In this document: piece after piece, positions 52,153 to 61,100 of the stretch | Position numbering within the stretch: the stretch's first letter is position 1 | Layout of the letters: each line of letters begins with the position of its first letter | NCBI RefSeq assembly: GCF_013122565.1 | Contig: NZ_CP053258.1 | Length of the DNA stretch: 64,000 nt | Source: Escherichia coli | GTDB taxonomy: Bacteria; Pseudomonadota; Gammaproteobacteria; Enterobacterales; Enterobacteriaceae | Reading direction: 5' to 3' (one strand) | Position numbers and translations under genes: made by a program | Notes under the pieces: model-generated | Databases searched by the model: none | Seen by the model: only the letters and a program-made list of their open reading frames with translations | What the model was told of the DNA's origin: nothing

Positions 52153-53613
52153 TTACAGCGCAGCCACACACTCGCGCGCACCGCGTTCGCACAGCTGCTG
52201 ATATGCCGCCGTCACCGCGCCAACAAAGTCGGCATTTTGCGGCAGATCATCGGCAAAAATACCGCTCAGGCCCAGCAGCGCTTTCACGCGGTCTGCGCCC
52301 TGATACTGCGCGTTAATCTTCTGGAACTCGGCCAGCATCGGGTCGACCACGTCAATGGCATTACCCTGCTCATCCACGCCCTGGGTGTAACGCATCCAGC
52401 CAGCCACGCCCAGCGCCAGGTGACGCCAGCTGCCGCCGTTTTGCAGGTGCAGACGCACCGGATCCAACAGACGCTGCGGTAACTTCTGGCTGCCGTCCAT
52501 CGCAATCTGCCAGGTACGGTGACGCAGAGACGGGTTGCTGAAACGCTCGATCAGCAGCGTCGCATAGGCGTTCAGGTCCGTACCTTCCGGCATCGACAGC
52601 GTTGGCGCTTGTTCCTGCATCATCAGGGCAAAGGCCGCTTTGCGATAATCCGGGTTAGTCATGGTGTCGGCAATGGTTTCATAGCCGCCGAGGTAACCGA
52701 GGTATGCCAGGAAAGAGTGGCTGCCGTTCAGCATACGCAGCTTCATCATTTCGAACGGCACAACGTCTGCAACGAACTGTGCGCCCACTTTATCCCAGTC
52801 CGGACGACCATTAACGAAGTTATCTTCAATCACCCACTGACGGAACGGTTCGCAGGCAATGGCGCACGGGTCGTAAACACCCAGCTGGTCAGCAATTTCC
52901 TGTAAGGTTTCTGGCGTCGCCGCCGGAACGATGCGGTCAACCATGGTGCACGGGAAGGTGACGTTCTCTTCAATCCATGCCGCCAGCTGCGGATCGCGTG
53001 CCTGAGCCAGCCCCAGAACCGCGACCTTTGCCACATGACCGTTTTCGCGTACGTTGTCGCAAGACATCACCGTAAACGCTTTCAACCCTTTTTCACGACG
53101 CAGGCGCAAGGCTTCGACGATGTAACCAATTGCAGACTTCGGCGCAGTCGGGTTTTCCAGATCGTGCTTGATCAGCGGGTTATTGAGATCCAGCTGACCG
53201 CTTGCCGCATCAGCGCAGTAGCCTTTTTCCGTGACCGTCAGGGAGACAATCGCCGTTTGCGGACGCGCCATCGCGTTGAGAATACCTTCGCAGCCGTCGA
53301 TTTCCGGATGCAGCGCTTCTTTCATCGAACCGATAATTTTCAGCTCGGTGCTTTCTGCGCCTTTTTCCGCTACGGTGTACAGCAGTTGCTGTTTTTTCAG
53401 GTTTTCGATCAGCACGCGGTCGTTGCCTGGCATCAGGTTAACTTCGCAGATGCCCCAGTCGCTGTCGGTGCTTTCCAGCAGATGATGGGTATACAGCGCC
53501 TGGTGCGCGCGGTGAAACGCCCCGCAACCGAGATGCACAATGCGTGATTCCAGACGAGAATGATCCCATGACGGGCGGGCAACCGGCAGATTGCTGTCAA
53601 CAATAGTAGTCAT
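52153..53613 (-). CDS. uxuB: D-mannonate oxidoreductase
   Basis: 486 aa; Rossmann motif HLGCGAFHRAHQ; recognised as UxuB. Confidence 0.95.
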   Translation of the reverse strand: MTTIVDSNLPVARPSWDHSRLESRIVHLGCGAFHRAHQALYTHHLLESTDSDWGICEVNLMPGNDRVLIENLKKQQLLYTVAEKGAESTELKIIGSMKEALHPEIDGCEGILNAMARPQTAIVSLTVTEKGYCADAASGQLDLNNPLIKHDLENPTAPKSAIGYIVEALRLRREKGLKAFTVMSCDNVRENGHVAKVAVLGLAQARDPQLAAWIEENVTFPCTMVDRIVPAATPETLQEIADQLGVYDPCAIACEPFRQWVIEDNFVNGRPDWDKVGAQFVADVVPFEMMKLRMLNGSHSFLAYLGYLGGYETIADTMTNPDYRKAAFALMMQEQAPTLSMPEGTDLNAYATLLIERFSNPSLRHRTWQIAMDGSQKLPQRLLDPVRLHLQNGGSWRHLALGVAGWMRYTQGVDEQGNAIDVVDPMLAEFQKINAQYQGADRVKALLGLSGIFADDLPQNADFVGAVTAAYQQLCERGARECVAAL

Positions 53614-53693: not shown

Positions 53694-54878
53694 TTAACGG
53701 CTAAAGAAAGCGCGCTGGATCGCCAGTTCGACACCGCGAACTTCGGCCAGGCCTTTCAGACGACCAATTGCGGAGTAACCTGGGTTGGTTTTCTTCTTCA
53801 GGTCGTCCAGCATCTGATGACCGTGGTCCGGACGCATCGGGATCAGGTCTTCTTTGCCTTCCGCTTTACGACGGTGTTCTTCTTCAACAATCGCTTTCAC
53901 CACTTCGTACATATCAACGTCACCGTTCAGGTGCGCCGCTTCGTGGAAGGTTTTCGGGTTATCTTCACGCATGGTGGAGCGCAGATGGGTGAAGTAAATA
54001 CGCGGACCGAACTGCTTGATCATATCAACCAGATCGTTGTCAGCACGCACGCCGTAGGAACCGGTGCACATGGTGAAACCGTTCGCCATGCTGTTTACGG
54101 TATCAACCATCCACTGCATATCTTCAATGGTGGAAACAATGCGCGGCAGGCCAAGGATCGGGCGCGGCGGATCGTCCGGGTGAACCGCCATACGGACGCC
54201 AACTTCTTCAGCAACTGGAATAATCGCTTTCAGGAAGACGGCAAAGTTTTCGCGCAGCTTCGCTTTATCGATATCTTTGTACAGCTCCAGGTGCTTACGG
54301 AACTGGTCGAGGGTATACCCTTCTTCCGCGCCCGGCAGACCGGCAATGATGTTACGCGTCAGACGCGCTTTGTCTTCGTCGCTCATAGTGGCGAAGCGTT
54401 CAGCTGCCTGAGCAATTTCTTCTTCGGTGTAATCCGCTTCCGCGCCTGGACGTTTCAGGATATGCATTTCGAATGCAGCGAATTCGATCTGGTCGAAGCG
54501 CAGAGCTTTGGAGCCGTCTGGCAGCACGTATTCGAGGTCAGTACGGGTCCAGTCGAGCACCGGCATGAAGTTGTAGCACACGGTGCGAATGCCGCACTGC
54601 GCCAGGTTGCGCAGAGTCTGCTGATAGTTAGCGATCCACTGCTCATAGTTGCCAGTGTGGGTTTTGATATCTTCGTGAATTGGTACGCTTTCTACGACAG
54701 ACCACACCAGGCCTGCGTCTTCAACGATCGCCTTGCGTTTGAGGATCTCTTCTACGGACCATACTTCGCCGTTCGGGATATGGTGCAGCGCGGTAACCAC
54801 GCCAGTTGCGCCCGCCTGACGGACATCAGCTAAAGAAACCGGATCGTTTGGGCCGTACCAGCGCCAGGTCTGTTCCAT
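53694..54878 (-). CDS. uxuA: Mannonate dehydratase
   Basis: [35 protein letters not shown]...; recognised as UxuA. Confidence 0.93.
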
Positions 54879-55040
54879 GATTTTTCCTCTTTCACATAGT
54901 GGGTTCCACAGCAAAGAGACGCGGAACCCTGGAGTTGTTTAGGTATCCGGATGAACAACCAGACCGCAGCCGTGGCGTTGCATCGGATGAGATGGCGTAT
55001 AAGTTCTACCTTTTGGTAAGACATGTCAACCCGAATTCTA

Positions 55041-55057
55041 AAATTGGTTAACCACAT
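55041..55057. promoter_or_regulatory. Candidate UxuR/ExuR operator upstream of uxuA
   Basis: aaattggttaaccacat contains TGGT-TA-ACCA; about 165 bp upstream of the uxuA start. Confidence 0.45.
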
Positions 55058-55148
55058 CACAAGAATTTCACTCTCATGGTTGTTGATGCAAATTGCAGCA
55101 AAGGGTAATCGATGGTTATTGATCAGAGGATGTGACATTCATAGCAAC

Positions 55149-55164
55149 AATGGTTGACCAATTT
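55149..55164. promoter_or_regulatory. Second candidate UxuR/ExuR-type palindrome
   Basis: aatggttgaccaattt contains TGGT-TG-ACCA. Confidence 0.3.
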
Positions 55165-55736
55165 ACATAACATGTCGCCCAAAATAACAATGGATTAACC
55201 TGGAGAGATAAAACGTTATTAGTTTCTCGCAGACTACGGTGGTGATTGCGCTCATGCTGTTCTACACCTCGCGGTCACGATTGGTGAGATCGTGACCGAA
55301 ACATCGCAAGAAGATTTTTACACACCAGTGTCTGATTATTTAACGACGGCCGCCCGGCGGGGTTATACGCAAGTAGTGGTGAAACCCTACTCAACCACGG
55401 CGTCGAGGTGACCAGCGTTCTGAAGCTGCCCAAAATACAATCCTCTTGCAGAGACTATCCTCTGATCGCCTATTTAAAAATGAATGTTGAACAATTAGGA
55501 AAAGGAAATGTGATTTATTACAATAACTACGGTGACTATTCTAATAATATGACTTGTGAATAAAACTAAATGATCAATGGCAATTTACTACAGATAAAAT
55601 GCCTGACGAGATTCAATCATTATATGTTTAACTTGCCAGACATTTATTTTATAATAAAGAAAAATGCACATTCGTCGATTAATATTCAACGCGTAGACGT
55701 CATATCAGATATGCTATTTAAAAGGAATTAACTCTA

Positions 55737-55886
55737 ATGGCACACAGTATAAAGCAATGTTTCCATGCGGTTGGAAAAGGTACTCTTTATACCGGACAGA
55801 TAAAAAACATGTCTAACAACAGGCTTTTTCGTGCCAGCTATATTTGTCCAGTGTGTCACCCCATCCAAAAATTATCCACATCCTGA
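55737..55886 (+). CDS. Possible small Cys/His-containing protein (49 aa)
   Basis: Manual translation MAHSIKQCFHAVGKGTLYTGQIKNMSNNRLFRASYICPVCHPIQKLSTS; aagga Shine-Dalgarno about 11 nt upstream; AT-rich island spacer; could be spurious. Confidence 0.25.
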   Translation: MAHSIKQCFHAVGKGTLYTGQIKNMSNNRLFRASYICPVCHPIQKLSTS

Positions 55887-56068
55887 CGTTACGTTAGATA
55901 TAGAGAAAAGAGGTTGTACTGTGCAATATGCAAACCGCATAAGCGAATATAATTTCTAAGTTGATATTGTCTGGCTGTTGGGAGCTAAGCAATATAAATA
56001 TCACCAGTTGTCAGAACGGTTATATAGACCAGGAGCGTTTCGGCTCCTGGTCTGTTTCGGACATATTA

Positions 56069-58183
56069 TCAGTCAGCCACTAATAGCGGGCTAGGGATAC
56101 CAGATGATGAAACAAACAGCCCTTTTACGGCACGGGTTGCAGCCACATGCAGTAACGCGCGCTCATTAAATAATGCATCACGCTGTTCAACGGGATCATC
56201 GGATGCTAATGCTTTTATTTCCGGCACAACGCCTTCGTTAATTCCCACCAGGAACACATACTGGAACTCAAGCCCTTTAATACGGTGCATCGTTGCAACC
56301 CGCACGCCAGGGCGTGCATCGCTGTCACCGCTATCATTGCCTAAATTAAATGTCTCAATTCCGGCGTCATTCAGTGCTGATGCGTAGCGGTCACAAGCAT
56401 GTTTAGTACGCGCAGTAATGCAGATATCCTGAGAACGAACCTGATTCGCCAGCAATGCCTGAATTTGCTTGACGAGCGTTGCAGCCTCTTCTTTGAAATC
56501 TGCCGCATGCGTAATCATGGGCTTTTCCCCGTGCAGTAATGACAAATAATCATTACTGGTATCCGCTTCGCCATCGAGGTTATCAACCTTCACACCAGTT
56601 AACAGCCCAACAGCAAATTGACGCGTCTCTTCTGTGGTCCGATAGTTAATCTTCAATTTTTTACTGCGACGACCACGGACGTTAATACCACACTGACCAA
56701 GAACGACCTTATTGCGATAAATACGCTGATGCCCATCCCCGACAATAAACAGATCGTTGGGCGACTCGGGAACCAGGCTGCGAATAAGAGTAAATGCCGG
56801 GGCACCGATATCTTGAGCTTCATCGACCACAATACTGCTATAAGGTAGTTGAACCTGTTTTTCTTTAAACAGAACAATAGCCTCATGCATGGCATCGCCC
56901 ATTTCGCGCAGTTTGGCACGCGCCATTTGTGCTCTGAATTCTTCAAAGACTGGCCAGATTTTCGCCCGTTGAATACGGGATAACGCTGTACCACGTCCAA
57001 CCCGGCTGACTTTGAGGTATTCCTCCCGGGTGTAAACCGCATTTGGCTGGACAACGCGTTGCCACTCTTCAGCATAGAAATTGTCAGGTAGCCCCAGTTC
57101 GGCAGGTGCCTGCTGCAAGGCATAGTTCCAGCATTTGCGTCGCCCTTCATCGCTGTCGTATACCACGCGGAAATCATAACCGTGGCGTTTTAGTTGGTCG
57201 CTCATCCAGGCATCAATGTTAACGACGTCAATACGCGCCATCTCTTCTCGCGTACACAACCGCTGGAGATTAGCGCGAATATCTGCCGCCAGGTTACGCG
57301 TAAATGTCGTGAAAAGTACCTTCTTACCGGGTTTATCTGCCAGACGCTGAGATAACCACCGCGCACGGTGCATCGCAACAACCGTTTTCCCTGTACCTGC
57401 ACCACCCAGTACTCGTACCGGACCATTAGCGGGCGACTCCACCAGTTTTCGCTGGCTCGGATGCAGAAATACACGCCATTTTTCTAAAGGCGCATTAAGC
57501 ATCTGCAACAGCTCCTGTTCATTTTCAACGACATGGAAGCGACGTTTACTTCGTTCAATCGCCTCCATAAAGTCGTTGGTATCAACAGGCTCATCACGAT
57601 GATCGTTAAACTCTTCCAGCACTTCCTGGTAATCCAGCCCTTCTGCCAGCCAGTGCAGAGGTTCCCAGGCTTCTGCTGGCATTATGCTTTCAAGTTGATT
57701 AAGCCCGGCTTCATCGGTAAGCGCCATCACCTGATCAATAAAGACAGGCGGCACACCCAGGGCCAGAATCTGTTCCGCGCTGTAAGCTGCGAAGAGTTTC
57801 GGTTTATCAACCACCGTTTCCGCTGCCGGTTTGATATAGCTAATATCAATGACCTGAATCGCGCCGGTAACCGGGTGAATCGAACAATCATGCCGCCGCG
57901 CCCAGTCGTATGCTTCGTCGTGTTTATCCACCCACATCAGCATATACAGGGCACCCTGTTCAGGTTTCAGAACAATGCCGCGATAAGTTTGATCGATTCG
58001 CACCGAATGGACATTTTTACTGCGCGCATCGTGGATCTTTTCATAGTTAAGTCCATTACTGGTCGGGTCCTGACGGAATTTGGAGATGAATTCCTGCACC
58101 TTTTTTTGCTGTGCTTTTGGGATCCGCGCGAATGCGCCCAGAAAACCATCAGAAAGTGCCACCTTGGGCGTTTGCACCGTCAT
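56069..58183 (-). CDS. UvrD/PcrA-like SF1 helicase with about 220-aa N-terminal domain of unknown function
   Basis: 704 aa; Walker A VLGGAGTGKT; VVDEAQD; FIVGDGHQRIY; C-terminal RIKGLEFQYVFLVG; start overlaps the stop of the upstream giant gene (ATGA). Confidence 0.8.
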   Translation of the reverse strand: MTVQTPKVALSDGFLGAFARIPKAQQKKVQEFISKFRQDPTSNGLNYEKIHDARSKNVHSVRIDQTYRGIVLKPEQGALYMLMWVDKHDEAYDWARRHDCSIHPVTGAIQVIDISYIKPAAETVVDKPKLFAAYSAEQILALGVPPVFIDQVMALTDEAGLNQLESIMPAEAWEPLHWLAEGLDYQEVLEEFNDHRDEPVDTNDFMEAIERSKRRFHVVENEQELLQMLNAPLEKWRVFLHPSQRKLVESPANGPVRVLGGAGTGKTVVAMHRARWLSQRLADKPGKKVLFTTFTRNLAADIRANLQRLCTREEMARIDVVNIDAWMSDQLKRHGYDFRVVYDSDEGRRKCWNYALQQAPAELGLPDNFYAEEWQRVVQPNAVYTREEYLKVSRVGRGTALSRIQRAKIWPVFEEFRAQMARAKLREMGDAMHEAIVLFKEKQVQLPYSSIVVDEAQDIGAPAFTLIRSLVPESPNDLFIVGDGHQRIYRNKVVLGQCGINVRGRRSKKLKINYRTTEETRQFAVGLLTGVKVDNLDGEADTSNDYLSLLHGEKPMITHAADFKEEAATLVKQIQALLANQVRSQDICITARTKHACDRYASALNDAGIETFNLGNDSGDSDARPGVRVATMHRIKGLEFQYVFLVGINEGVVPEIKALASDDPVEQRDALFNERALLHVAATRAVKGLFVSSSGIPSPLLVAD

Positions 58184-61100
58184 TTGTCACCTCCGGACAG
58201 ATGTTGCAATGTATTTTCGTCAATTGGCCCGAATGCAACGTGCCAACCTCTGGTTGTGAATAATGGAATAAATTCTTGATTATCAATAATCAATGCCCAT
58301 TTTTGTGATGGCCAGGCGAGATCGGCTTCTGCAATAATTTCACCCTCATCATTTTGCAATTCGTAGCCGAGAGTCGGCGCAGAGAGAGAATGAGACTGAA
58401 GCAACGCGATCTCTTCAGCGCTTAATAAGCCAAACTCAATAATCTCAGCCCAACTTTCATCAGTCTCTGGTACTGCCTCTGGCGTTGCCGAAACTTTAGT
58501 GTCAACGCTTTCCTGCGGTAAATGCACGGCTTTACGGCTGGTAAAGGTCATATCCGGCAGGAACTGTAACAGGTTTACCAGTCGCCAGAAGCCATTGAGT
58601 CCCGCTTCATAACCGTCATCCTGCGTATAGCGATCGTCAAAACAGATATGCAAACGCAGCCAGCTGCGCATTTGTGCGACGCTGGTCGTCGGTTTAATGG
58701 CTTGTTGTGGTAACACCGAAGCCAGTTCAATAAATTGCTGCGATGAGTTACAGCTATCGAGTAAACCACCAAAGACAAACGGTTCGTCTGGCAAAAGCTC
58801 TGCTAGCCGCCAGGCTGGCGCGTTTTCCTGCATTTCATAGGCATACTTTTGTTTCGTTCCCGCGTCCTGTGACTTCTTCACATCCAACCACACCCAGGCA
58901 TGTGCAGCAGCCATTCTCTGCCATAACTGCGTTCTTCCGCCCGGATCGGCGAGATAATCCAGCAGCAGTGCAAAACTGTTACGTTCCCGGAACGACGCTT
59001 CAAGGGCCGCAAAGTTGGTATCGTGAAACAGGTTATAAAACTTAGGCTGTTTCATATCCGGGTTATGCCCAAGTCCCAGGACATCCTGAACATGTTTAAG
59101 CCCAGGCTCTTTGAGATCGGCCCACGTGACTGTCCACACCCAGAAATTACCGCTATCCCGAATCGCCTGGCGTTTTTGCACATCCTCTGCGACGCTATTT
59201 TTGTGGAACGCAAAGCCATCAAGGAAAATAGCCACCGGTTTAATGGCATCAGACTGCATAAGCGGATATAGCACGTAATCCGGGCGACAAGGGATCCCCA
59301 CCGCCTCTTTAGCGCCTAAATCCACCTGAGCTTTAAGATGCCAGCTCATCATCGGTTCGCTGCGGGTGTTAATAATCCACCCAGCGCCCTGATGCGCGTA
59401 ACTGCGACTGACAATCAGGTTTTTATTTTCTTGCAGGCAGCTAATAAACCGTTTTTCCAGCTCACTGCCCATCATGGCTTCGAGGGAAATGTTTTTGATG
59501 GAATCAATTACCCGTATCGAATCTCTTGCCTGCAAAATTTTCGCCAGCAAGAGACGCGCCTGATCGCGGGAGACATACTTCATGCGCCCACGGTCACGGT
59601 AAGCGTAAACGCAACGATAACAACCATCTTTATGCGTATCATTGTTGCAACTGCATTCCACTATTGCCTGATAGGCCAGTTCAAGTAATTTCAGCAAATT
59701 GTCGGGAGTGCGCATCAGCTCTTTAAGAGAACCAGTTCCCCCCGGGACGGTATCGTAAATCACCAGATACTGCCGCCAGGATTCGCCTTCATTTTCCGGC
59801 TCGCGGTACACAACGCCTTTCAGGTGATCGACATTCCCCTTGAAGTAATGCTTAAGGCCGAGCTGGATCGCCGCCCCAAGAGAAGCCTCCACGACACGGT
59901 CATTACTGTAACTGCTTACCGGGAGCAGAATACGCAACGCTTCTGACTCCAGCTGGCGATAGAGGTAGAGATAATCTTCGAACTTCGCCTTTTCCGGTTC
60001 CGTGCGATATTTGCAGCTCAAATCATGACGTGGTTCATGATCGCGAGGACGCTGCACCATGCCGCACCCGAGGCAAACTTTAAACCCGGTTCGCTTCTTC
60101 GCTTCTCCGGCAATCATCAACTCATTGGCATCATCCGCCATTTTGCCGAAGTTGATATCCCGCAGGGTGACTTTGCTTAAAAATTCAAAACCAAACGGAA
60201 CTTCGCCTTCCTCAATCGCGTATGCCGCCGATACATCTTCTTTTTCGAAACTAACCAATAGCTGACGCTGGAAGAAAGCAGGTTCACGGCTGTCGCTCTC
60301 GTCGCTGATCTGGCTATCACGTGCGCTGGCGCGGGCATAAACCTGGCGAAGTTTCAGCAGCGTGGTTTTTTGTCCGGCATCGGCCCACCCCGGTGTGCCA
60401 CATTTCGGGCAATATTTATGCTGGTCGCCCGTCTGGTCGATATTTTCGCTGTAGTTACAGTGGCTACAGATACGCCAGTTCTCCGGCTCAGAGACCTTCA
60501 GGTCTATCTGCTCAATTTCAACTTTATGCCCACCGGCATAGAAATTATTCAGCGGAGCCAGCTCAGCCAGCGCCGTTGATGCCGGGCGTTCATATTCGAA
60601 AGTGGTGTTTTGATATTCACGCGCTTCCCCGCCTTCTTTACGCCGCCAGAGCACAGAACGTAACGTAATACCGGCTTCCGGGAAGGCGTAGTTAGGCAGC
60701 AGCCCTTCATCCGTGAGGAAATTCAGCGTTTGCTTATTGTTGATTTGATTGACCAGCGCCATCAGCGCCTGTCGTTCTGAAGTTAACTCGCGCATATCGC
60801 TATCAAAGTTTTGATCGCGCGGCGCGTTCTCCAGTTTATCGATACTGCGCTTGAGCTTATCGATGCGTGAGCGCAAAGATTTGCGATCTTCCACCAGCAG
60901 TTTTAACGCTTCTTCGATACGCTGCACCAGCGAGCGTTGTCCTGGCGCGCCCTGAAGATAAGACAACAGCTGTTGGCGAGTTTCTGCGGCAAGATCGGGG
61001 AAGATCGCCGTAAATTGTGCAGCAATCTCCGCATGATGCTGTTCGATATATCGCAGTAAGTTATACGGAAAACCCGATTTACGCCCGAACTCCAGCTCAT

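Follow-up and report, generated by a model that had tools for sequence, protein, structure and literature searches.

Decayed genes on the armD side of an ARMADA type II island adjoining uxuA in Escherichia coli

We examined the AT-rich spacer that separates uxuA regulatory DNA from a helicase cassette in a 64,000-nucleotide stretch of Escherichia coli contig NZ_CP053258.1 (hereafter, the window). The spacer is very probably the decayed, non-functional armD-side edge of an ARMADA type II (OI-172-like) defense island that is joined directly to the uxuA upstream region. E. coli backbone runs to position 55219 and is followed by 51 unassigned nt, a dead gene of the uracil-DNA glycosylase (UDG) superfamily, and the upstream region plus the first 86 nt of a metallo-β-lactamase (MBL)-fold gene; beyond a 1,043-bp deletion come the last 137 nt of the MBL gene, out of frame, then a conserved hairpin and the convergent armD gene. 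From the homologies, junction coordinates, reading frames, and lack of conservation described below, we infer that none of the features that drew attention to the spacer, namely an inverted repeat, a 49-codon open reading frame (ORF) with a Shine-Dalgarno sequence, and low GC content, is a functional unit. What remains is ordinary gene decay at the edge of an already known anti-phage island.

The spacer borders an ARMADA type II operon

The gene at the right edge of the spacer is armD (56069-58183, minus strand), which closes the ARMADA type II operon and encodes a UvrD/GajB-like helicase (Pfam UvrD-helicase and UvrD_C; PADLOC GajB). It is followed by armC, which extends from 58180 to beyond 63984. 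Using PADLOC and Pfam on four proteins of a near-identical locus (L003) and on the window, we recovered the ARMADA II gene order: an SNF2/BrxHII-like helicase, a PglX-like methyltransferase, a YprA-like helicase with DUF1998, and a GajB-like UvrD helicase. PMC12458937 names WP_000937974.1, the ArmC protein of the O157 locus L007, as the ARMADA II representative.

Two reports describe the ARMADA type II/OI-172 island as carrying armABCD with Druantia III and Zorya II, and the islands of O157 and ATCC 8739 as active in defense (PMC12458937; bioRxiv 10.1101/2025.09.22.677730). The passages of these reports considered here make no mention of the region downstream of armD or of the two decayed genes. 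The window shares with this island the neighbors armD and armC and the conserved armD flank. In contrast, its island tail abuts uxuA, whereas the tail abuts nanS in O157 and SMS-3-5 and a tRNA-Phe integrase in ATCC 8739 and PSJ-36.

The E. coli backbone ends within the gntP start codon

Positions 54879-55219 correspond to the uxuA-gntP intergenic and regulatory region and were 95%–99% identical in 5,404 of 5,426 complete E. coli genomes. This segment contains operator-like palindromes at 55041-55054 (AAATTGGTTAACCA) and 55151-55164 (TGGTTGACCAATTT). The match stops at 55219, after the first two bases of the gntP start codon; in strain Nissle, gntP begins one base before the end of the backbone match. 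From 55220 onward, blastn with a word size of 7 found no counterpart in K-12 or Nissle. The alignment to the K-12 uxuA-gntP region thus breaks off at 55219 and does not run end to end, bearing out the proposal of a first-pass annotation that the spacer marks an island junction. The junction would most likely have originated by a deletion of ~16 kb spanning gntP-fim-nanCMS. The low GC content noted in that annotation holds for most of the spacer (43% at 55271-55563, 29% at 55564-55736, and 39% at 55737-55959); the GC content of 55220-55270 is 51%.

We also looked for other backbone genes in the spacer. Word-7 blastn and peptide comparisons against the gntP-fim-nan-yjh regions of Nissle and K-12 revealed no gntP remnant past 55219, and the same comparison gave no DNA support for K-12 yjhR as a possible armD remnant.

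The 51 nt directly past the junction (55220-55270) encode, in the frame of the lost gntP start codon, a hydrophobic peptide that includes ALMLFYTS (55248-55271). This string had been put forward as a possible remnant of the displaced gene, an idea not supported in that form: neither DNA nor protein similarity to gntP continues past the start codon, and the gene remnant that is present belongs to the UDG superfamily and is read in other frames. The 51 nt were confined to nine complete genomes and E. marmotae-type loci, all with the same junction, and UDG-profile homology begins only after them, at 55271.

One reading, compatible with our main explanation, holds that a GntP-family permease gene formerly lay behind the uxuA-gntP promoter region and left these 51 nt as its 5′ end. 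Its actual join to the UDG gene would then be at ~55271, at the inverted repeat. The frame set by the lost gntP ATG, which reads ATT in the window, runs for 25 codons without a stop, its product resembles a transmembrane segment, and a GC content of 51% resembles that of core genes more than the 40%–43% of the UDG gene. The E. marmotae-type version of the peptide, IVVA-IALVLFYTTRSRL, resembles the YjhF N terminus, IVVAGIALLLLLTIKIKL (shuffle p about 0.02). However, the similarity to YjhF is weak, falling to p about 0.09 for the version in the window, similarity to the N terminus of GntP itself was at shuffle level (p 0.4–0.5), and hydrophobic N termini easily match one another. Pfam searches of the frame-1 peptides returned no GntP_permease domain and only a sub-threshold PspB match, and no E. 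coli genome beyond the junction carriers contained related DNA. A permease origin of these 51 nt is therefore unlikely, if well short of negligible. A degenerate back-translated pattern, VV[..]IAL[VM]LFYT, had zero matches in the metagenome contigs, in a scan that also missed the pattern-bearing JGI contig L026, so this zero carries no weight.

A UDG-superfamily pseudogene follows the junction

The segment from 55271 to 55563 (plus strand) is a 5′-truncated, frameshifted, and internally deleted gene whose parent is the 216-residue protein WP_001026378.1, intact in SMS-3-5-type islands. Residues 39-67 are encoded at 55274-55360, after which a gap of 13–14 nt shifts the frame; residues 71-109 are encoded at 55357-55473 on the same strand. 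The next 78 codons (residues 110-187), including the GD motif and most of the core, are deleted, and residues 188-216 follow at 55474-55560, ending with TAA at 55561-55563. The remnant was 73%–80% identical to L004:14861-15511 by blastn, gave a joint E value of 5e-15 by tblastn, and matched the family profile by hmmsearch at 1e-7 and 2e-5 in two frames. All three kinds of match fall into three pieces in two frames, placing the remnant in the UDG superfamily. About 100 homologs of the parent, of ~199 residues, carry Pfam PF03167; WP_001026378.1 itself scored 18.1 bits against this model, below the 24.3-bit cut-off. The remnant has no intact ORF with the family-invariant INEVV, GD, and NLLIEK motifs, and INEVV reads IGEIV.

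WP_001026378.1, annotated in SMS-3-5-type E. coli as "uracil-DNA glycosylase family protein" or "hypothetical," adjoins the same cassette, and its gene shares position and orientation relative to armD with the remnant in the window. The window pieces are 48%–62% identical to it in protein and 73%–80% in DNA; the window carries a divergent, decayed allele of a gene that is intact elsewhere. In O157:H7, a separate deletion of 661 bp has removed the entire UDG ORF. A word-indexed protein search with the conceptual remnant retrieved two fragment proteins only, one of which traces to an IS1-interrupted contig.

A 1,043-bp deletion removed the core of an MBL-fold gene

From 55564 to 55959, the spacer derives from a second gene, and from 55960 onward it is the conserved flank of armD. 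Positions 55564-55736 (plus strand) are 92% identical to the AT-rich region upstream of an intact 421-codon gene in two E. marmotae-type loci (L009 and L014). The first 86 nt of that gene (28 codons plus 2 nt) lie at 55737-55822, 93% identical to L009:6478-6563, and the last 137 nt lie at 55823-55959, 96%–97% identical to L009:7607-7743. At the junction between them (55822/55823), 1,043 bp corresponding to L009:6564-7606 are missing, a length that is not a multiple of three. The true frame of the 3′ piece (55831-55959) encodes PAIFVQCVTPSKNYPHPDVTLDIEKRGCTVQYANRISEYNF and stops at a TAA at 55957-55959; by tblastn, residues 378-421 of the 421-residue protein align to it. Escherichia sp. E1V33 and E13S3 contain the same uxuA junction as the window together with the intact 421-codon ORF, in which the first 26 residues are those of the 49-codon ORF and the last 42 are those of the window ORF at 55831-55959.

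Both the upstream region and the N-terminal segment, with its family consensus VxQxFHAVGxGTFxTG, are homologous to those of the MBL family. The deleted stretch contains the metal-binding SHFDDDH, GD, and VPHHGS motifs, which are invariant in the family, and what is left of the gene has no full-length ORF with SHFDxDH, GD, and PHHGS. An AlphaFold2 model of the 421-residue parent (pLDDT 82, pTM 0.86) gave as top Foldseek matches the ComEC β-lactamase-like domain 9ic4 (E 4e-10), Pce, ElaC-like proteins, and phosphodiesterases. Profile searches matched ComEC as well, and the single-sequence Pfam match was under the cut-off. By this modeling, the parent is predicted to have a ComEC-like MBL fold.

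Relative to the cluster of WP_130221726.1, a 421-residue "hypothetical protein" of E. marmotae and unclassified Escherichia whose fold is nearest to 9ic4, the window retains the upstream region, the Shine-Dalgarno sequence, the first 28 codons, and the last 44–45 codons, in the same position and convergent with armD. It differs in having lost 1,043 internal bp. Since this deletion leaves the two ends out of frame, the window copy is a pseudogene without a product.

Intact copies of the gene are named E. marmotae or unclassified Escherichia, and what E. coli contributes to the cluster are fragments of 59–69 residues. At least 80% of the gene was present in 0 of 5,426 complete E. coli genomes. 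The form of the scar found in the window occurs in nine of these genomes. In 486 genomes, only the last 176–181 nt are kept, the product of a different deletion that leaves residues 364/365-421; O157:H7, SMS-3-5, and ATCC 8739 have a deletion of this gene different from that in the window. Searches of plasmids with the MBL protein gave four distant partial matches only.

This distribution, in which E. marmotae alone has the gene intact and every E. coli carrier has lost it through two or more independent deletions, could also be read as selection. The ComEC-like MBL gene would then once have served the ARMADA/OI-172 island as a nuclease accessory and be counter-selected in E. coli. The retained promoter and ribosome-binding site would keep the scar active, with either the chimeric 49-residue peptide, whose C terminus arose de novo by frameshift, or a convergent transcript modulating armD or ARMADA activity. 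We give this scenario a small chance of being correct and favor plain decay of the gene.

The inverted repeat lies within dead coding sequence

A perfect inverted repeat reported near the junction is indeed present, each arm being one base longer than described: CGGTCACGAT at 55272-55281 and ATCGTGACCG at 55289-55298 form 10-nt arms around a 7-nt loop. The repeat lies inside the UDG pseudogene, where it encodes AVTIGEIVT, the decayed form of the INEVV motif.

We considered whether the repeat is a functional site, either an operator for an island or gntP/uxuA regulator or a recombination or cleavage site behind the junction. It sits where UDG homology first becomes detectable, 53 nt beyond the end of the backbone. 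When the 929-bp region was simulated with a first-order Markov model, ~2% of the simulations contained a perfect repeat of at least 10 nt with a loop of 3–20 nt, and as RNA the repeat forms a stable hairpin (−18.3 kcal/mol, z = −3.2). On the scale of a 64-kb window, however, chance alone gives ~1 such repeat, and the window contains eight distinct ones, most of them at gene ends. The closest relatives with the same junction, the E. marmotae-type loci L009 and L014, match in only 8 of 10 positions with changes that are non-compensatory, contain an in-frame stop codon, and fold more weakly (z = −2.0), and no similar repeat occurs elsewhere in the spacer. A role for the repeat as a site is very unlikely; it is a lineage-specific coincidence inside a dead UDG gene. 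The start of the repeat at 55272 coincides with the start of UDG homology at 55271, a possible tie to the rearrangement that created the junction.

A conserved hairpin separates the MBL remnant from armD

Between the convergent stop codons of the MBL remnant and armD is a GC-rich hairpin with an 11-bp perfect stem and a 6-nt loop (56026-56053), with predicted folding energies of −26.5 kcal/mol on the plus strand and −21.4 kcal/mol on the minus strand (z about −6). The 246 bp downstream of armD (55823-56068) were 95%–99% identical in 533 genomes, including O157:H7, O145, SMS-3-5, and ATCC 8739. The hairpin resembles Rho-independent bidirectional terminators in being stable, conserved, GC-rich, and midway between convergent stops. 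It differs from them in that its tail has too few T residues to form a canonical U-tract on either strand, and a terminator scan made no call. With its strong, conserved stem, it would probably be a terminator or a stabilizer of 3′ ends.

The best promoter-like site in the spacer is TTAACT-16-TATAAT (55628-55655), upstream of the MBL start codon. With this site, the Shine-Dalgarno sequence, and the start codon retained, expression of the chimeric peptide is possible: the old promoter and ribosome-binding site may still yield a short transcript, ending at the hairpin, and a junk peptide.

A stronger proposal is that the promoter of the dead MBL gene drives a non-coding transcript of ~390 nt to the hairpin, convergent to armD, that modulates the 3′ end of the ARMADA operon. 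A near-identical σ70-like site in L009 and the conservation of the strong hairpin are consistent with such a transcript. Yet promoter-like sites occur in the spacer only at chance frequency (5 found versus 4.0 ± 1.7 expected), and a search of 54800-56300 on both strands with Rfam 15 gave no match up to E = 1. Moreover, the AT-rich segment that the O157 and SMS-3-5-type islands have here is a different one and does not align, and the O157 and ATCC 8739 islands are among those reported to be defense-active. PMC12458937 also reports that armABCD suffices on its own for protection. We regard the existence of such a regulatory transcript as highly improbable.

The 49-codon ORF is a scar of the deletion

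The first-pass annotation had also pointed to a 49-codon ORF (55737-55886, plus strand), translated as MAHSIKQCFHAVGKGTLYTGQIKNMSNNRLFRASYICPVCHPIQKLSTS, as a possible Zn-binding mini-protein, regulator, or accessory factor. The ORF exists, as does a Shine-Dalgarno sequence, AAGGA, at 55722-55726, 10 nt before the ATG. On its own, such an ORF is unremarkable, as 12 kb contain 112 ORFs of at least 30 codons. It is a chimera, in which 28 genuine N-terminal codons of the MBL gene are fused to 21 codons in the −1 frame (RLFRASYICPVCHPIQKLSTS), giving the C-terminal sequence RASYICPVCHPIQK. The string C...H...CPVCH is likewise present, but not as a Zn-binding arrangement: C8 and H10 belong to the genuine, β-strand-forming MBL N terminus (family consensus Q-x-F-H-A-V-G), while CPVCH results when the FVQCVTP codons are read in the −1 frame.

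Related islands do not preserve the ORF, contrary to what the mini-protein proposal predicts. In ~486 other E. coli islands, including SMS-3-5 and O157-type ones, its start codon and first 29 codons are absent and Tyr replaces the His of CPVCH (His41); the SMS-3-5 frame lacks an ATG and encodes CPVCY. Two metagenome contigs (L027 and L028) have the same deletion junction minus one base (C55824), which produces an in-frame 73-codon ORF without CPVCH. The window-type scar goes back to a single deletion event in all its carriers, so its conservation within this group carries little weight in either direction.

Similarly, the ORF matched nothing meaningful in Pfam, NCBIfam, PHROG, and PADLOC searches of the small ORFs, and the RefSeq annotation of the region contains no feature. 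When the 49-residue sequence was used to query 1.84 billion representatives, the other significant matches were long repetitive proteins (three inspected). A genuine zinc-binding accessory of the helicase cassette would use C8/H10 and C37/C40/H41 as its metal ligands. In favor of it, besides the real ORF, Shine-Dalgarno sequence, and ATG, is the likeness of YICPVCH to the initial knuckle in the repeated WICPVCH...CPYC zinc-ribbon units of P0250. Like zinc-ribbon or CxxC-knuckle mini-proteins, the ORF is short and has a ribosome-binding site and one CPVC(H) knuckle-like motif. Unlike them, with their four ligands in CxxC...CxxC-type spacing, it contains a single CxxC (C37 and C40) and lacks a second CxxC pair to form the other knuckle of a zinc ribbon, its motif is out of frame and not conserved, and it belongs to no family. 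The two substitutions seen among carriers (V12I and L46S) are both non-synonymous. With the C-terminal 21 residues explained by the 3′ end of a known gene and eliminated by a 1-nt indel in L027 and L028, a zinc-binding protein is hardly credible. As judged from sequence comparison, the ORF is a scar of the 1,043-bp deletion.

Discussion

In annotation, the 49-codon ORF does not merit a gene call, and two pseudogene features describe the spacer better, with the island boundary at 55219/55220. Different Escherichia lineages have repeatedly lost the UDG-superfamily and ComEC-like MBL genes of the armD tail, each time independently. The repeated loss of these two tail genes fits reports that armABCD alone suffices for defense (PMC12458937).

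Seven homolog contexts showed no constant partner, which speaks against UDG plus MBL as a conserved two-gene module and against MBL and an SF1 helicase as a pair. A Brig1-like glycosylase was considered as the product of the UDG gene; comparison with PDB sequences gave only a marginal match to a family-5 UDG (E 0.18). The MBL-fold family counts at least 392 clusters and occurs on its own in variable and defense islands; its candidacy as a defense gene is a lead rather than a finding on the spacer itself.

A defence island joined to the uxuA-gntP intergenic region

The uxuB (52153-53613) and uxuA (53694-54878) genes, both on the minus strand, are followed by the spacer region and then by two large minus-strand helicase genes. 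Of 5,426 complete E. coli genomes, 5,404 contain nucleotides 54880-55219 at 95-99% identity, and in all matching genomes except nine the match stops at 55219, which in Nissle 1917 falls on the second base of the annotated gntP start codon. No match beyond 55219 emerged when sensitive blastn was used to compare 55101-56100 with the Nissle uxuA-gntP-fimH locus or 55000-64000 with the K-12 fec-yjh-sgc-nan-fim-gntP-uxuA region. These alignments place the island junction, to the base, at 55219/55220, with no detectable gntP remnant. An island boundary was one of the readings offered by the first-pass annotation, and this reading is correct.

Only nine complete E. coli genomes carry the whole 849-bp spacer (55220-56068), within which RefSeq annotates no feature, and these nine share one uxuA junction. 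In SMS-3-5 and O157:H7, the cassette is located past gntP, the fim operon, and nanCMS; in ATCC 8739 and PSJ-36, it adjoins a tRNA-Phe integrase. Compared to the SMS-3-5 arrangement, in which ~16 kb separate the gntP start codon from the island tail, the window lineage lacks this DNA. This direct-junction lineage consists of the nine genomes, a JGI metagenome contig, and the Escherichia marmotae-type Escherichia sp. E1V33 and E13S3. Where uxuA is fused straight to the island tail (L001, L003, L009, L014, and L026), gntP, fimB-fimH, and nanC/M/S are missing from their usual place.

The conserved intergenic region contains long-range palindromic pairs (AAATTGGTTAACCA / TGGTTGACCAATTT; 55041-55054 / 55151-55164 and 54951-54961 / 55077-55087), which resemble the UxuR/ExuR operator sites of this divergent promoter region. 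In the window, the gntP-side promoter now points at a pseudogene. Across the spacer (55220-56068) and its surroundings, identity between the window and the E1V33 and E13S3 loci (L009 and L014) is uneven, at 97-98% in uxuA, 86-92% in intergenic and remnant DNA, and 99% in armD, which suggests a more recent exchange of the cassette than of its flank.

The small ORF is a deletion scar

A 49-codon ORF (55737-55886) containing a CPVCH motif, an AAGGA Shine-Dalgarno sequence (55722-55726), and low-GC DNA (29% in 55564-55736) are present where first reported, and had been read as a possible zinc-binding mini-protein, regulator, or accessory factor. ORFs this short are abundant in the window. By scanning one genome per species, we found E1V33, and a protein look-up yielded E13S3. 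Both have the window's uxuA junction and uracil-DNA glycosylase (UDG) remnant and, between this remnant and armD, an intact 421-codon ORF convergent with armD (L009:6478-7743; L014:8001-9266). It starts with MAHSIKQCFHAVGKGTLYTGQIKNMS, which matches residues 1-26 of the small ORF exactly, and it finishes with ...PAIFVQCVTPSKNHPHPDVTLDIEKTGCTVQYANRISEYNF, the sequence of the window's ORF 55831-55959 in the other frame. The window is colinear with L009 to 55822 (L009:6563) and resumes at 55823 (L009:7607), leaving a gap of 1,043 bp, a length that does not divide by three. With this out-of-frame gap, the 49-codon ORF comprises 28 genuine codons and 21 codons in the -1 frame, and CPVCH is what the FVQCVTP codons give when read out of frame. 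The Shine-Dalgarno sequence and AT-rich upstream DNA are signals that belong to the parent gene and match L009 and L014 at 92% identity.

In 533 genomes, among them O157:H7, O145, SMS-3-5, and ATCC 8739, the last 246 bp of the spacer (55823-56068) are present at 95-99% identity, with homology beginning at 55823 every time. In SMS-3-5, the frame opens just 11 codons ahead of the shared part, lacks an ATG, and reads CPVCY. With the 49-aa sequence as query, a search of 1.84 billion representative proteins yielded one true relative, a 73-aa protein; other matches were long repetitive proteins (three inspected). DNA for the relative came from two metagenome contigs with the same junction, both lacking C55824; loss of this base brings back the true frame and abolishes CPVCH. 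The two other differences among carriers, V12I and L46S, are non-synonymous. The first-pass annotation had named lack of conservation in related islands as grounds for rejection, and on that criterion its readings of the ORF as a mini-protein, a regulator, or an accessory factor are refuted. The spacer holds nothing more unusual than decaying genes at the end of a defence island that has been described before.

The parent gene encodes a ComEC-like protein

The 421-codon parent is a real gene. Its product has homologs in at least 392 clusters from Gamma- and Betaproteobacteria, with invariant SHFDxDH, GD, and PHHGS motifs. A confident AlphaFold2 model (pLDDT 82, pTM 0.86) best matched the ComEC beta-lactamase-like domain (9ic4, E 4e-10), followed by other metallo-beta-lactamase (MBL)-fold phosphodiesterases, and a sequence profile likewise reached ComEC. 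PADLOC returned only weak, partial matches to MBL-type defence proteins. The homologs occur singly in variable or defence islands, and no partner gene recurs beside them.

Full-length members of the protein's 90% cluster are named E. marmotae or unclassified Escherichia, whereas the members from E. coli are 59-69-aa fragments. At least 80% of the gene was found in no complete E. coli genome: 486 genomes retain only its last 176-181 nt after a different deletion that left residues 364/365-421, and nine retain the window's form. Only E. marmotae and unclassified Escherichia have the gene intact; all E. coli carriers have lost it, by at least two different deletions.

The inverted repeat lies within a UDG-superfamily pseudogene

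SMS-3-5-type islands carry, upstream of the armD flank and convergent with armD, a 216-aa gene (WP_001026378.1) annotated as "uracil-DNA glycosylase family protein" or "hypothetical protein." Three segments of the window align with this gene: 55274-55360 (residues 39-67, one frame); 55357-55473 (residues 71-109, another frame, after a 13-14-nt gap); and 55474-55560 (residues 188-216, then a stop codon). Residues 110-187 are absent. A profile of 22 UDG family members detected homology from 55271 on; members of the family other than WP_001026378.1 are ~199-aa proteins with Pfam PF03167 from gut Bacteroidales and Clostridia.

The inverted repeat noted earlier is present and slightly longer than first described (CGGTCACGAT-N7-ATCGTGACCG, 55272-55298). 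It sits within the pseudogene, on IGEIV, the decayed form of the family-invariant INEVV. When the 929-bp region was simulated with a Markov model, a perfect repeat of this size arose in ~2% of runs, and ~1 per 64 kb is expected by chance. In E1V33 and E13S3, pairing is 8/10 with non-compensatory changes and weaker folding, and a stop codon lies within the loop in the UDG reading frame.

The UDG-like ORF is intact in SMS-3-5-type genomes (93 complete genomes). O157:H7 lacks it entirely through a clean ~661-bp deletion between very short repeats (L007:8735-8748 versus L004:14861-15528, the SMS-3-5-type island). In one E. coli draft (L006, GCA_003982765.1, contig end), an IS1 end inside the remnant, equivalent to window ~55540, results in a different 65-aa "hypothetical protein" call. 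A modest by-product worth noting is that two genes at the island tail, this UDG-like gene and the unannotated gene with the ComEC-like MBL fold, were lost independently in different lineages.

The 51 nt after the junction

Nucleotides 55220-55270 are neither backbone nor detectably UDG gene, and have a core-like GC content of 51%. Read in the frame that the lost gntP ATG would set, they give the hydrophobic peptide that had been proposed as a possible remnant of the displaced gene. This proposal is not supported for gntP: there is no blastn similarity past 55219, and neither the window nor the E. marmotae-type peptide resembles GntP. The latter shows a weak likeness to the N terminus of the GntP-family paralogue YjhF (shuffle p ~0.02), weaker for the window peptide (p ~0.09). 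A Pfam search with the peptide gave no match, and a degenerate pattern scan of metagenomes found none, but it overlooked even a contig in which the pattern is present, so this negative carries no weight. That these 51 nt derive from some permease gene is unlikely.

The neighboring cassette is ARMADA type II

The minus-strand gene at 56069-58183 encodes a 704-aa UvrD/GajB-like helicase. We read the genes beyond it in the near-identical locus of strain Res13-Lact-ER02-39 (L003); they encode a 2,113-aa DUF1998 (YprA/DruE-like) helicase, a 1,637-aa PglX/DrmMI-like methyltransferase, and a 952-aa DrmD/BrxHII-like helicase. WP_000937974.1, ArmC of the O157:H7 locus, is the ARMADA II representative named in PMC12458937. 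The two cassette genes in the window are armD and armC (58180 to past the window end, minus strand) of this anti-phage system, and the spacer is therefore DNA 3′ of armD. In related genomes, armB, armA, and then Druantia III druE lie beyond armC, and the order armD-armC-armB-armA-druE agrees with the published OI-172 island (PMC12458937; bioRxiv 10.1101/2025.09.22.677730). In Res13 strains (L003:18784-26908), annotation gives the druE-like helicase gene upstream of armA as a pseudogene that is truncated at its N terminus and adjoins an IS66 element. The fec operon comes after it, so the Res13 island is eroded further on its other side.

Between the convergent stops at 55959 and 56069, within the block conserved in 533 genomes, lies a hairpin with an 11-bp perfect stem (56026-56053; -26.5 kcal/mol on the plus strand, -21.4 on the minus strand, z ~ -6). 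No canonical U-tract follows it; it may be a terminator or 3′-end stabilizer for armD and the former MBL gene. Some E. coli plasmids (H30, L016; H148) also carry the hairpin region and the last ~29 nt of armD (56019-56097), 94-96% identical to the window and adjoining a "terminase" gene and an IS1-truncated armD fragment annotated "3′-5′ exonuclease."
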